From sequence record NC_018854.1: a stretch of 64,000 bases of DNA, one strand, 5' to 3'. Made by a program: the position numbers and the translations under genes. The stretch comes from Escherichia phage ECBP1. The notes beneath the pieces are model-generated. The model made no database searches and was not told the DNA's origin. It worked only from the letters and a program-made list of their open reading frames with translations. Shown in pieces: positions 60,861 through 64,000 of this stretch (the first letter of the stretch is position 1; each line of letters starts with the position of its first letter).

Positions 60861-61521
60861 GTACTAGTTTAGAACCAGCAACCTCTTTGGTAGGTACACC
60901 ACTATTGATTGCATTAATTTGCTGCTCAGCTAATGCAGCAAGTGTTGCCTTGAGGTCAGTTAATCCAGAGTTCTCTCTCAAGTCCAGATTGATATTCGTT
61001 ACCTGGTCTTTTGGTTTAGCTAAGTGGGTAAGGATAGAGTTAGCTGCATCACATCTTACCTTCTCACTTGCTGCTGTAGTCATCAGTTCAACCTGAACAT
61101 TGATTGCCTTCTGATAATTATCCTGGTTCACAATCCACACTGGAACCAAACTTTGTTCCATGATGAGGTTAACTAACTTACCCCTGTGATAAGCAGATAC
61201 ATAAGCACTAATATCTTTCTCGCTGGTTCCTCGTGCAACAAGTTCTGCTTGTCGGTTAGGGAATGTCTTGAAGTAGGCTTCCTTATTGGAATAACCCATG
61301 TGTTTATAAGTCACATACTGAACTGCATTCATGTAGTCCTGTGTCTTAAACTTACCTTCCTTCATTACACCAGAGTAGGAGATAAAGTTTTCACGGAAGG
61401 ACTCAGCAACCAGTTGGTCTTGGGTTATGTTGTTGATCGTGTCTACCAACTCCTGGGTCACACTGTTTTTGAAGTTAGCAGGTAAGGCATTAACAATCTG
61501 CTGCTTAGTTAGTTCACTCAT
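60832..61521 (-). CDS. putative terminase small subunit (by position)
   Basis: 229-aa ORF immediately upstream of and overlapping the large terminase gene. Confidence 0.35.
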   Translation of the reverse strand: MSELTKQQIVNALPANFKNSVTQELVDTINNITQDQLVAESFRENFISYSGVMKEGKFKTQDYMNAVQYVTYKHMGYSNKEAYFKTFPNRQAELVARGTSEKDISAYVSAYHRGKLVNLIMEQSLVPVWIVNQDNYQKAINVQVELMTTAASEKVRCDAANSILTHLAKPKDQVTNINLDLRENSGLTDLKATLAALAEQQINAINSGVPTKEVAGSKLVRADEDITDV

Positions 61522-61692
61522 ACTTATCTCGCTACAAAGTTATGTCTATTAAAGAAGATTCTTTTCTTGGGGTGAGTTACCCCTTGAAGAAACGATACCA
61601 TACAGTTACACTTTAGTCATGATATAGAAAAAGTTCATGATACTAAATAGTATGTAATGTTCCGATGACCCTATTCCCAAAAGGAGTAACCT

Positions 61693-61983
61693 TTGAGAAT
61701 CTATATGAAAGCCCCAGACTCTAGTGACAAGTACTTCGAACTAGACCACACTAAGATTGGCTTCCTTTCAGATGATATTATCATTACACATGATGAAGAC
61801 ACCTACCATGAATTAGCTGGGATGATGCTGTTAGAGAATCGTCCAGGCATTAAAGTCTTAGAACCAAGAGAAACTTACTCTTTAGATAAAACAATTTCAT
61901 CTCTTGTGTTCTTCACAAAATTACCTCATAGTGTCTCCGTCAGGCGAAGCAAAGACAGTGTTCGGATGACGGTGACGATGTGA
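61693..61983 (+). CDS. small protein, member 1 of tandem paralog family
   Basis: TTG/ATG start after AGGAG; contains 'IIITHDEDTYHELAGMMLLEN'. Confidence 0.5.
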   Translation: MRIYMKAPDSSDKYFELDHTKIGFLSDDIIITHDEDTYHELAGMMLLENRPGIKVLEPRETYSLDKTISSLVFFTKLPHSVSVRRSKDSVRMTVTM

Positions 61984-62183
61984 TTAGTCATGCCGCCTAG
62001 TAGACAGTGGCGGTACTCGTAAAGAGTTAATAACTTCTACAGTCAGGGTTGCCCGGCTCCTTTCCTACCTAGTAGGCTAACGATACACATGTATCTAGGG
62101 TGATGAACTGACCCGTGATTGAAAACGGTAAGGGGTAGAGTCGAGAGGCTCTACCCCATTTCTTTTTCTGGAGGAATGCAATT

Positions 62184-62531
62184 ATGAGCATCTACGCTTT
62201 TGATATTGATATTACCGGAGTACTTCATAAGCAAGGACCTTATCTACTTGGGGAACCAGAAACAGTAAGTAAGTTCATTGCTCCCTGGCAATCTGTGTTC
62301 TTACCTAACTGTGAAGAGTCCCATGAGATTGTTGGCTGTCTTTTCTTATCAAACCTACAACTCAATACTGAGATACTTACCGAACCAAAGGTGTATGACC
62401 TCACTCGTTATGACGGATTCAATGAGTTCTTCCCTGGTATACGTTTCTATAAAATACCCGGTTGGGAATTGATAGTTGACCATAACGTCTTTAATAAAAC
62501 ACTTTCCATTTACTTCAGACCACTTTCCTAA
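62184..62531 (+). CDS. small protein, member 2 of tandem paralog family
   Basis: GGAGG RBS; contains 'VFLPNCEESHEIVGCLFLSN'. Confidence 0.5.
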   Translation: MSIYAFDIDITGVLHKQGPYLLGEPETVSKFIAPWQSVFLPNCEESHEIVGCLFLSNLQLNTEILTEPKVYDLTRYDGFNEFFPGIRFYKIPGWELIVDHNVFNKTLSIYFRPLS

Positions 62532-62548
62532 AGGAAGGAGAATCAATC

Positions 62549-62863
62549 ATGAAATTCATAATGACCATCCCCAGTTTTGCTGAAAGGGAGTCTATGTATA
62601 CAAATGACTTCTCTTTAGAAGAAGTCATGAATAGTAGCCCCCAACATGTAATCCTAGTTCCTACCTTAGAGGACTACCATGAAGTAAGGGGCCAGTTATT
62701 CTTAGCAGGTAATGACCGTAAGGTTGTATGTATTGTCCCACCTTCCGTCTACTCCTTTAGTGATGCATATGACGCTCTACCTTTCATGATGGTATCCGAT
62801 GAATACCAATGGGATAGTCGCCATAAGAATGAAGAATACCATTACTACTATGTAAGGAAGTAA
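62549..62863 (+). CDS. small protein, member 3 of tandem paralog family
   Basis: GGAGAA RBS; contains 'VILVPTLEDYHEVRGQLFLAGN'. Confidence 0.55.
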   Translation: MKFIMTIPSFAERESMYTNDFSLEEVMNSSPQHVILVPTLEDYHEVRGQLFLAGNDRKVVCIVPPSVYSFSDAYDALPFMMVSDEYQWDSRHKNEEYHYYYVRK

Positions 62864-62866
62864 GTT

Positions 62867-63181
62867 ATGCACTTCTTCGGTTTAAGTAGTCGTAGTACAT
62901 GTCCCCTTAATCTGGGAGTAGGTAAATCCCCCTGGTTGGGAATAAGTAAACCCATGACCATGTACTATGAACCCTGTAAAGAAGCAGATGAGTTCATAGG
63001 AACCTGTCTAATGTTAGGTGCACCTATTACCTTTATTAAGATAAATACTTCCATCGAAGTTCCAGAGGATGTCGCTGTATACATCTTCTCCTCCAGTGAA
63101 CCTATGGTAGCTACTACTCTTACAGGCAGACTCATTACCCTCTATCCTTCCTCATATTTATCTAGCGACGGAAGCTACTAA
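62867..63181 (+). CDS. small protein, member 4 of tandem paralog family (divergent)
   Basis: contains 'YYEPCKEADEFIGTCLMLG'. Confidence 0.45.
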   Translation: MHFFGLSSRSTCPLNLGVGKSPWLGISKPMTMYYEPCKEADEFIGTCLMLGAPITFIKINTSIEVPEDVAVYIFSSSEPMVATTLTGRLITLYPSSYLSSDGSY

Positions 63182-63465
63182 TGGTTATCAGTAAAATTTA
63201 TTCAGAGCTACCTGGGGATGAATACACCCACCATAAAGAATTAACTAACCTGGATGCTGATGTACTCATACTGGTTCCAGACGAACAGTCCTTGCATGAA
63301 CTACAAGGATTACTCTTCTTATACAATAAGAATTCGGAAGTACATCTACTTGAACCAGGAACACCGATGTCCTGGCAGGGTAGCTTCAGTCCTTGGCATC
63401 TCAATACGGACAAGTACATACTATCCTTCGAGGATAACACCCCAATCTATAAGGAAAGACAATGA
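63181..63465 (+). CDS. small protein, member 5 of tandem paralog family
   Basis: contains 'LILVPDEQSLHELQGLLFLYN'; start overlaps upstream stop. Confidence 0.55.
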   Translation: MVISKIYSELPGDEYTHHKELTNLDADVLILVPDEQSLHELQGLLFLYNKNSEVHLLEPGTPMSWQGSFSPWHLNTDKYILSFEDNTPIYKERQ

Positions 63466-63776
63466 AACTAAACACATCACCCTATCCGGTGCAGTTAGAA
63501 GTAGTACTCGACCGGGATACCTTCATTAAAAAGTACAAGAAACTTAAAGGGTATGAGCCAGATTTGGAAGGTTGTAAGGGGTATACTACATACTCTGATA
63601 ATAAGGTTCTTATGGGCATCTTCTCAGACCCCTTGCCAACGCTTATCCATGAAGTAAACCACTTCTGCTTATGGGTATTCGATTATATTGGTATGCCTAT
63701 AAACAGTAGTAATAGTGAAGCGTACTGTTACTACATGGATAGCATTCTTGAACAGGTACTGAAGAATGAACGTTAA
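63462..63776 (+). CDS. small protein, probable divergent member 6 of paralog family
   Basis: contains 'PLPTLIHEVNHFCLWVF', alignable with the PTL..HEV core of member 3. Confidence 0.45.
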   Translation: MKLNTSPYPVQLEVVLDRDTFIKKYKKLKGYEPDLEGCKGYTTYSDNKVLMGIFSDPLPTLIHEVNHFCLWVFDYIGMPINSSNSEAYCYYMDSILEQVLKNER

Positions 63777-64000
63777 ACTATTAGGTATGAAAGGTACTGA
63801 CTTACTGCACTATTCCTCTGAACCAGGGAAAGCAATCATTCACATTATGTCCTACGGAACCTCAACGCTAATAATGGAGCCAGGAGAGTTAGCAGACTTT
63901 GCACAGGGACATAAGCTAATTACTAACAGTAATGCAGAGATAGTTATCCTGCAAAATGGTGAGTCAGTATTCATACCATACGGTGATTATGCCTATGTAT
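63766..64000 (+). CDS. small protein, 3'-truncated by window edge; possible further family member
   Basis: ATG overlapping upstream stop; open to window end; 'LIMEPGELADFAQG' loosely fits family core. Confidence 0.35.
   Translation, partial: MNVKLLGMKGTDLLHYSSEPGKAIIHIMSYGTSTLIMEPGELADFAQGHKLITNSNAEIVILQNGESVFIPYGDYAYV

Follow-up and report, generated by a model that had tools for sequence, protein, structure and literature searches.

The right end of the genome of Escherichia phage ECBP1 (NC_018854.1) carries a tandem array of small genes, which extends from the small terminase gene (TerS) to the end of the deposited record, and, between the first two genes of the array, a structured RNA. 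The window analysed here is a stretch of 64,000 nucleotides (nt) that ends with this record. An earlier reading, made from the letters alone (the sequence-only reading), had noted six consecutive open reading frames (ORFs) on the + strand and a seventh cut by the window edge, and had described them as a tandem paralogous family at the genome arm of an N4-like phage. All seven ORFs, here named A-G, were recovered at the same coordinates, and the tandem family was borne out for six of them. The phage is an N4-like coliphage (Gamaleyavirus, Schitoviridae), as had been supposed, and other Gamaleyavirus phages (Bp4, PD38, IME11, PGN829.1, U1G, G7C and relatives) share 84-90% identity with the region at their right ends.

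In annotated relatives, the cluster is bounded on one side by the small terminase gene, which points leftward and is homologous to N4 gp69, and on the other by the right terminal repeat, and in circularly assembled relatives the early genes gp1 and gp2 come after it. The layout is a conserved intergenic region (61522-61692) between TerS on the minus strand and the divergent gene A, followed by gene A, the RNA, an intrinsic terminator, the ribosome-binding site (RBS) of gene B and genes B-G, which are packed tightly or overlap. Gene A (ECBP1_0077; 61693-61983, phrog_7213) encodes 96 amino acids (aa) from a TTG codon and is the homologue of N4 gp70. The RNA and its terminator occupy ≈185 nt on the + strand (61984-62167). 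Gene B (ECBP1_0078; 62184-62531, 115 aa, phrog_9160) is the N4 gp71 homologue, and is followed by genes C (ECBP1_0079; 62549-62863, 104 aa, phrog_11661), D (ECBP1_0080; 62867-63181, 104 aa, phrog_12099), E (ECBP1_0081; 63181-63465, 94 aa, phrog_16338), F (ECBP1_0082; 63462-63776, 104 aa, phrog_1365) and G (63766-64000, phrog_12606), all on the + strand; for G, the first 78 of ≈112 codons are present. A, B, C and E are members of one superfamily, D and G are divergent members and F is a non-member, on the evidence that follows.

Direct tests of sequences and profiles point to a statistically supported core shared by A, B, C and E. All-against-all comparison with phmmer and BLASTP gave matches between A and E (1.5e-6), C and E (7e-7), B and C (7e-6) and A and C (3e-4). 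When the proteins were searched against the PHROG library (38,880 families), A, B and G matched their own families at 4.9e-41, 1.1e-60 and 4.1e-37, respectively, while A and C also matched phrog_16338, the family of E (3.4e-4 and 2.6e-3), and C cross-matched phrog_9160, the family of B. The family profiles of A, B, C and E align by hhalign at P ≈ 1e-5. A superfamily profile was built from these four families and distant representatives, with no G sequence included, and was searched against the six-frame translation of the window, which yields 390 segments of 50 aa or more. Apart from A, B, C and E, which match by construction, the profile found G at E = 0.003, and the next best segment had E = 0.76. 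With fuller families, G aligned with the superfamily at a probability of 91% (P = 1e-6), and one metagenomic sequence (L014:5618-5932; L numbers denote loci from related phages and contigs) matches both the E and G families. These comparisons support G as a member of the superfamily.

The membership of D appears weaker and is supported indirectly, through G and metagenomic intermediates from the locus L013. D was not detected directly by the A/B/C/E profile among the window segments (E = 2.1), and its hhalign probability against the superfamily was 43% (P = 2.5e-4). It aligned with G, however, at 89% (P = 2e-6) over 80 columns, and it matched L013 intermediates at 6e-9 and 1.3e-7, the link running through L013:9288-9599 and L013:9596-9916. 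Among the metagenomic sequences that connect the E, G and D families are L014:5618-5932, L013:8973-9287 and L013:9288-9916. F, which the sequence-only reading had counted as a family member, has to be removed: its hhalign probability against the superfamily was 0.9%, there was no hidden Markov model (HMM) match, and its predicted topology is different. Our confidence is high that the seven ORFs include six tandem paralogues (A, B, C, D, E and G).

The shared core had been written as P-x-x-E-[DE]-x-H-E-[LVI]-x-G. Alignment and HMM-HMM comparison gave statistical support to a shared core for A, B, C, E and G, with D and G joined through intermediate homologues and D the weaker of the two; it did not hold for F. 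Nor is the motif universal in the form given. When the families of A, B, C and E were aligned with N4 gp70 and gp71 (18 sequences), the His and the Gly were the only invariant core residues, and in the 41-sequence superfamily alignment no core residue is invariant and only the Gly is nearly so. The His is kept in most of the 41 sequences, usually together with the Glu and its acidic neighbours, and is lost in D (EADEFIG) and G (ELADFAQG). Pairwise identities among members are only 13-25%. The superfamily consists of single-domain proteins of ≈90-135 aa, restricted to the Schitoviridae, with a mildly acidic calculated isoelectric point (pI; 4.7-5.7 for the six complete ORFs).

The fold of the superfamily was modelled for C only, with AlphaFold2 on the 41-sequence alignment. 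The model was confident, with a predicted local distance difference test score (pLDDT) of 86.9 and a predicted template modelling (TM) score of 0.81, and has the topology hairpin-helix-strand-long helix-five strands. The conserved strand (VILVP) runs into a 13-residue helix that bears the E-D-x-H-E-x-x-G motif. The model had no significant structural match in the PDB. A Foldseek search of BFVD (E ≤ 0.1) with this single query returned only small uncharacterised proteins; the named matches were all from Schitoviridae phages (Escherichia, Klebsiella KP8, Achromobacter JW/Axy and Pseudomonas Zuri), usually several per genome, and included E-like, G-like and gp71-like proteins from PhAPEC5, PhAPEC7, IME11, OLB145 and KP8 at TM scores of 0.5-0.78. 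Scans of all seven proteins against Pfam, NCBIfam and PADLOC gave no match, and profile searches of PDB sequences with the superfamily and the F family gave no relevant one. The earlier statement that no known fold or family could be recognised therefore stands, but the six member ORFs are already filed in PHROGs 7213, 9160, 11661, 16338, 12099 and 12606, each of which holds one of them and is labelled “unknown function”. PHROGs keeps these as six unrelated families, for which a common origin is shown here.

The implied orphan status of the genes was not borne out, since every ORF is in a PHROG of unknown function and A and B are homologues of N4 gp70 (7.8e-19) and gp71 (4.8e-8), as the annotation of PhAPEC5 also has it. 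The N4 proteins (YP_950548 and YP_950549), uncharacterised right-end proteins, have the same position, orientation and layout as A and B, and N4 likewise has a gene, a gap of ≈200 nt with the RNA and terminator, and a second gene. N4 has two family members and the tiny gp72 where ECBP1 has six members. Because A and B are homologues of gp70 and gp71, the family is older than the split between N4 and G7C, and gp70 and gp71 are themselves paralogues of ancient origin. They (A and B) are the ancestral pair, and A is the single-copy founding member. We found no description of the common origin, the probably shared predicted fold or the intervening RNA in searchable annotations or in the literature on gp70/gp71, N4 right-end genes, small RNAs of N4-like phages and Gamaleyavirus variable regions.

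An exhaustive HMM search of 1.84 billion representative proteins gave only 34 matches at E ≤ 0.001, of which 33 were 54-133 aa long. The remaining one (P0078; 418 aa, matched in five stretches) was discarded as a low-complexity repeat artefact. Contigs were examined for four of the matches, and all four lay between TerS and gp1 of N4-like contigs. The family occurs with the same gene order in Klebsiella phage KP8, the Achromobacter phages JWAlpha and Axy24 and Pseudomonas phage inbricus, and so covers the subfamilies Enquatrovirinae and Rothmandenesvirinae. The position of the cluster between TerS and the right terminal repeat or gp1 was the same in ECBP1, N4, the metagenomic contigs, Axy24, inbricus, JWAlpha and KP8. 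The family was not found by sequence in Litunavirus Pa2 or in Piffle. Homologues of E occur only in Gamaleyavirus-like contigs, and word-indexed searches with E and F returned only Gamaleyavirus-like proteins. Copy number varies across relatives: two family copies were detected in N4, 2-3 in inbricus, 2-4 in JWAlpha, 4-5 in Axy24, five each in L011 and KP8, six each in ECBP1 and L014, and about 10 in the metagenomic relative L013. Within the Gamaleyaviruses, IME11 and Mimir124 lack E. In IME11, its place is taken by a second G-like paralogue, which is divergent (L002:4670-5011), and in Mimir124 such a paralogue (L008:3176-3517) stands in for both E and F, a cassette swap inside clusters that are otherwise 85-90% identical.

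Rates of evolution were measured against 13 Gamaleyavirus relatives. The median nonsynonymous divergence (dN) was 0.009 for the large terminase gene (TerL) and TerS, with a ratio to synonymous divergence (dN/dS) of 0.03. For the seven cluster genes, dN was 0.08-0.17 and dN/dS was 0.15-0.32, with the highest value for gene A (0.32). All seven are real coding genes under purifying selection, which evolve about ten times faster at the protein level than the terminase genes, and the description of the array as rapidly diverging was thus correct. Amino-acid identities among Gamaleyaviruses are mosaic, ranging from 55 to 96% in the cluster compared to 97-100% for TerS. Gene D is 59% identical in PGN829.1 and 91% in PhAPEC5, whereas F shows the reverse pattern. 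Such mosaic identities indicate that cassettes are exchanged between phages.

The most novel element of the locus, which the sequence-only reading missed, is the previously undescribed RNA between A and B. The 200-nt gap (61984-62183) is 93-100% identical at the nucleotide level among Gamaleyaviruses, compared to 79-92% for the coding sequence of A, and its alignment can be extended to N4 and as far as Axy24 and inbricus. The RNA begins 8 nt past the stop codon of A with a 5' hairpin, P1 (61992-61997/62009-62014), whose 11-nt loop forms a pseudoknot (62000-62004 with 62036-62040) between GUAGA and a UCUAC located 32 nt downstream. An optional hairpin, P2, follows (62015-62027). A long-range helix, P3 (62042-62046/62108-62112 and 62051-62054/62098-62101), encloses a GGCUCCUUU box that is unpaired in the consensus structure (62055-62063) and the hairpins P4 (62064-62076) and P5 (62082-62095). 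Hairpin P6 (62113-62128) leads to the intrinsic terminator found by a consensus scan (62132-62157, with a GNRA loop and a U tract to 62167). The RBS of gene B starts 3 nt past this U tract, and the order of terminator, RBS and ATG behind gene A is kept in all lineages.

RNAalifold recovered just two helices from a plain MAFFT alignment, and the full structure came from a model-based alignment. A covariance model, R1, was built from five sequences with the pseudoknot left out. It found exactly one full-length copy per phage (33 bits in N4, 38.9 in KP8, 37.5 in Axy24, 39.7 in inbricus and 31.4 in JWAlpha), always between the stop codon of the gp70-like gene and the RBS of the gp71-like gene. In a 15-sequence alignment (A10), 97.7% of the cells at paired positions were standard pairs, compared to ≈42% in slid controls, and 32 of the 47 pairs had changes on both sides. 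The covariation score was 0.422, against 0.129 for shuffles (none of 500 reached the observed value) and ≈0.048 for slid partners. The pseudoknot, which the model had not seen, was 96% paired, and three of its five pairs covary (U-A to G-U or C-G; A-U to G-C). The minimum free energy z-score of the RNA was −3.2. Because G-U pairs are frequent, the structure is placed on the transcript of the + strand. Our confidence in this structure, as predicted from covariation and including the pseudoknot, is high. In the metagenomic L013 (7990-8000 region), the 3' strand of P3a (CUGAC) could alternatively pair with a GUCAG in the 3' half of P6, an arrangement not seen in the other lineages.

Rfam 15 gave no relevant match to the window region at E ≤ 1 (the only hit was a minus-strand mir-279 upstream of gene A, E = 0.23) and none to the N4, Axy24 and inbricus versions of the RNA locus. 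ARAGORN found no tRNA or tmRNA in 61400-64000, the RNA had no match in the E. coli genome, and Pa2, Piffle, Kuerle, RHph_X2_28B, Pollock and Pylas gave no copy when searched with filters off. The RNA is carried by 57 phage records, and nearly all of the listed ones leave it unannotated, apart from PhAPEC5 and PhAPEC7, which have a “terminator” feature, Mimir124, which has a small ORF, and one Klebsiella record, in which a label is misplaced. The ORF in question, of 40 aa on the minus strand (62069-62191; a hypothetical protein in Mimir124), overlaps the RNA and the terminator and is probably spurious. A coding role for the gap was rejected because of the strand-specific G-U pairs, the compensatory changes and large insertions and deletions inside helices.

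The intergenic region between TerS and A is likewise conserved. Its nucleotide identity is 93-100% among Gamaleyaviruses, above that of the flanking coding sequence, 90-92% in three of four metagenomic relatives and 77% in L032, and the mean column identity across six lineages, including N4, is 86%. The region presumably holds promoters. A scan for sigma-70 promoters found fewer sites than in shuffled sequences, with none upstream of A or B, and no promoter class was matched. A hairpin, GGGGT-N5-ACCCC (61569-61583), is present in a single copy at each locus; its stem is conserved and its loop varies. Its interpretation as an N4-type hairpin promoter or as a terminator was rejected, because the loop varies between 4 and 5 nt and the U run comes before the stem, not after it. 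The hairpin is flanked by UUCUUUUCUU and UUGAAGAAAC, and a direct repeat of TCATGATA is also present in the region.

We tentatively read the locus as a set of diversified binding paralogues, of which B-G are gated by a cis-acting RNA and terminator and expressed in the middle phase of infection, a reading that is plausible and still short of probable. Our confidence in any particular function is low. Since there is no room for a promoter between the terminator and the RBS of B, genes B-G would depend entirely on transcripts that continue past the terminator. Gene A and the RNA would then form one unit and B-G a gated second unit, and the RNA would most likely act in cis on terminator read-through. 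The gate might be a fold that responds to a ligand or protein, or it might discriminate between the T7-like RNA polymerase of the phage (RNAPII) and the host RNA polymerase, the enzyme that N4 uses late (PMC4496689). In this arrangement, the RNA resembles cis-regulatory leader RNAs such as riboswitches and protein-dependent attenuators, in which a folded domain lies directly before an intrinsic terminator, followed by the RBS of the operon. It differs from them in that it follows a coding gene rather than directly a promoter, and in that neither an Rfam match nor a convincing alternative antiterminator pairing was found. A processive antitermination RNA is also known from phage HK022, “put” (mentioned in PMC4496689).

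As to timing, the left end of the N4 genome enters the cell first, and complete entry requires middle transcription (PMC4496689); in the N4-like phage LUZ7, a cluster of right-end ORFans is transcribed at the middle stage (PMC9163698). Genes B-G would thus most likely be expressed in the middle phase, once the right end is inside the cell. The sequence-only reading had proposed a host-takeover or anti-defence locus, and host takeover in the early sense is unlikely, because the right end enters last in N4 (PMC4496689) and the LUZ7 cluster is transcribed mid-stage (PMC9163698). The LUZ7 cluster (gp87-gp115 of this Pseudomonas phage; PMC9163698) comprises many small right-end genes of unknown function on the strand where early and middle genes lie, as in ECBP1. 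This comparison is by description only; the other Pseudomonas N4-like phage examined, the Litunavirus Pa2, showed no sequence relationship to the array and no RNA.

The proteins themselves would most likely be non-enzymatic binders, each aimed at a different host or host-defence target and accessory rather than core, since one Gly and a hydrophobic pattern alone are kept across all the paralogues. Diversified binders are favoured by the small size and mild acidity of the proteins, their fast, mosaic evolution, the gain and loss of copies and the restriction to one phage family. Small accessory genes that act on the host or its defences include the early gene 0.3 (Ocr) of T7, the genes of the T5 pre-early region and the internal-protein and anti-restriction genes of T4. 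Like these, the genes of the ECBP1 array are small, mildly acidic, non-structural, variable in copy number, fast-diverging and lineage-confined, but the T7, T5 and T4 genes lie at the first-entering end and are expressed immediately, whereas the array is at the end that enters last (PMC4496689). Resistance to restriction-modification systems is reported for the Gamaleyavirus Bas96 (PMC11990801), a trait that nothing connects to the array genes. Overall, the sequence-only reading was partly supported: the genes form a fast-evolving, probably accessory family whose fold matches none known; the family is not an orphan, is unlikely to be early and does not include F.

Several points weigh against the proposal of gated, diversified binders. 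The function proposed for the family is read from sequence and a model, and library, profile and fold searches found no similarity to any known anti-defence or other named protein (PADLOC, for its part, covers defence proteins, not anti-defence proteins). In A, B, C and E, the conserved acidic-x-x-His-Glu with which the long helix begins could bind a metal or serve in catalysis, as in an enzyme. The gp70-like and gp71-like genes are kept as single orthologues across two subfamilies, which fits a housekeeping role; strictly retained beside the RNA, these two genes leave room for a conserved phage-internal role. On the regulatory side, no promoter was found by the scan of the region, read-through of the terminator is deduced from spacing only, and the middle-stage timing is borrowed by analogy from the distant LUZ7, which appears to lack the family by sequence. 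The CUCCUU box can pair with the terminator's 5' arm, but in most lineages neither this pairing nor that with the RBS of B was better than the pairing of composition-matched shuffled boxes. Pairing with the RBS of B did exceed the shuffles in L011, L013, L014 and Axy24, and not in the Gamaleyaviruses.

The main rival to a cis-acting role is that the RNA is a stable, trans-acting small RNA (sRNA) released from the 3' untranslated region of the A transcript, in which case the array would simply lie downstream and the conserved, unpaired CUCCUU box would base-pair with mRNAs of the host or the phage at their Shine-Dalgarno regions. An RNA that starts 8 nt past a stop codon and ends at a strong terminator has the typical make-up of such sRNAs, the box resembles an anti-Shine-Dalgarno sequence, and the better-than-shuffled pairing with the RBS of B in the four lineages just named is consistent with this role, as are the putative phage sRNAs reported in LUZ7 (PMC9163698). 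However, most base-pairing sRNAs are simpler than a pseudoknotted multi-helix junction of 185 nt. No target was found, pairing in the Gamaleyaviruses did not exceed that of shuffles, and the terminator abuts the RBS of B in every lineage, suggesting coupling to B. We consider an sRNA unlikely on balance, and still an explanation of some weight.

A second explanation concerns the proteins, and places the gp70-like and gp71-like proteins in the middle or late programme of the phage itself, with the extra copies as sub-functionalised duplicates. They might serve replication, concatemer processing or packaging (beside the terminase genes), or they might bind the adjacent RNA. In all the genomes of Enquatrovirinae and Rothmandenesvirinae examined, the two genes occur together with the RNA at the same position, adjoining TerS/TerL, and a replication-related role was suggested for the middle-expressed right-end ORFans of LUZ7 by the authors of that study (PMC9163698). 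Such a role is difficult to reconcile with a dN ten-fold above that of the terminase genes and its mosaic pattern, with copies that are gained, lost and swapped between near-identical phages, and with four other Schitoviridae lineages that have TerS/TerL and in which neither the family nor the RNA was detected by sequence; the calculated pI of 4.7-5.7, moreover, argues against nucleic-acid binding. We therefore regard a phage-internal role as distinctly unlikely.

Still less probable, in our view, is that the members are enzymes or metal-binding proteins that use the acidic-x-x-His-Glu, with D and G as inactive pseudo-enzymes. The invariance of the His in the 18-sequence alignment, its retention, usually with the Glu and acidic neighbours, in most of the 41 sequences, and the purifying selection on the members would agree with such an activity, while across the full superfamily the pattern shrinks to the Gly and hydrophobic positions on which the binder proposal is based. 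Finally, that the similarity is due to chance or composition, and that some of the ORFs are not genes, is suggested by the low pairwise identities and by the failure of the A/B/C/E profile to find D directly, but is highly improbable, and effectively refuted for A, B, C, E and G, given significant reciprocal matches by several methods in independent databases, the lack of any other window segment matching the superfamily profile, dN/dS ratios showing that all seven ORFs are coding, and orthologues kept in 57 phage records.

In its most far-reaching form, the proposal of a gated array would make the RNA and terminator a new class of phage cis-regulatory RNA that times the expression of a new-fold family of inhibitors of host defence or host physiology, which is conceivable, although we think it unlikely. 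If true, such an RNA would sense a metabolite or protein, or would distinguish phage from host RNA polymerase, in phages from N4 to the N4-like phages of Achromobacter and Pseudomonas, and N4 would gain an unseen regulatory RNA and a role for its last uncharacterised genes. N4 is a long-standing model of phage transcription, yet gp70-gp72 are without an assigned role. What is new here is that gp70 and gp71 are paralogues of one family, probably with a common fold, which has expanded to at least six copies in related coliphages used in therapy studies and evolves like a host-interaction module, and that, in two subfamilies of the Schitoviridae, an RNA supported by covariation and absent from Rfam has a fixed place, where it separates the founding gene from the other genes of the array.

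The non-member F is a distinct protein with an invariant signature, TLxHExNHFC...SEAYCYY; its HEVNH is the invariant HExxH motif of this separate family. H63, E64 and H67 are invariant, as is E86, located 22 residues downstream on the next helix. The model of F (pLDDT 92.2) has the topology strand-helix-strand-strand-helix-helix, unlike that of C. As in the zincin HExxH metallopeptidases, the HExxH is on a long helix that follows a small sheet, and where zincins combine the motif with a third ligand, F has its invariant HExxH and the invariant E86, which in the model may be a metal ligand. No significant match to a peptidase family, a zincin profile or a fold was obtained. We therefore describe F as an HExxH protein of its own family, with a function not assigned by homology, for which the label of metallopeptidase would be an extrapolation. 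A homologue of F is also present in the KP8 cluster (L036:6353-6685).

Some details of the gene boundaries differ between ECBP1 and its relatives. The start of gene A is likely TTG 61693, as the sequence-only reading had it, because translation from this codon yields an N-terminus (MRIYM...) that matches the MR[LI][FY] of the gp70-like proteins of N4, KP8, JWAlpha, Axy24 and inbricus, and because an AGGAG lies 5 nt upstream. Most GenBank relatives place the start at an ATG four codons downstream (61705; 279-nt genes). Gene B encodes 115 aa in ECBP1 and 129-132 aa in relatives (e.g., L001:3677-4075), in which it extends through the RBS of C and overlaps C, while the earlier stop in ECBP1 leaves a 17-nt spacer. 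In the annotation of some records, gene C carries an N-terminal extension of 21 codons.

A 69,855-bp IMG/VR contig ends in the same 6796 bases as the window. Since the end of the window is the end of the record, gene G is truncated by the deposited record itself as well as by the window edge. The ECBP1 record is without the rest of G and the right terminal repeat present in relatives (e.g., Mimir124, L008:3968-4370), and appears to be truncated or arbitrarily opened. In other Schitoviridae, namely Rhizobium phage RHph_X2_28B, Escherichia phage Pollock and Klebsiella phage Pylas, four to six tRNA genes are found just past the small terminase gene (L020:2137-3280, L021:3364-3693 and L022:4045-4703, respectively), in the slot that is occupied by gene A and the RNA in ECBP1.

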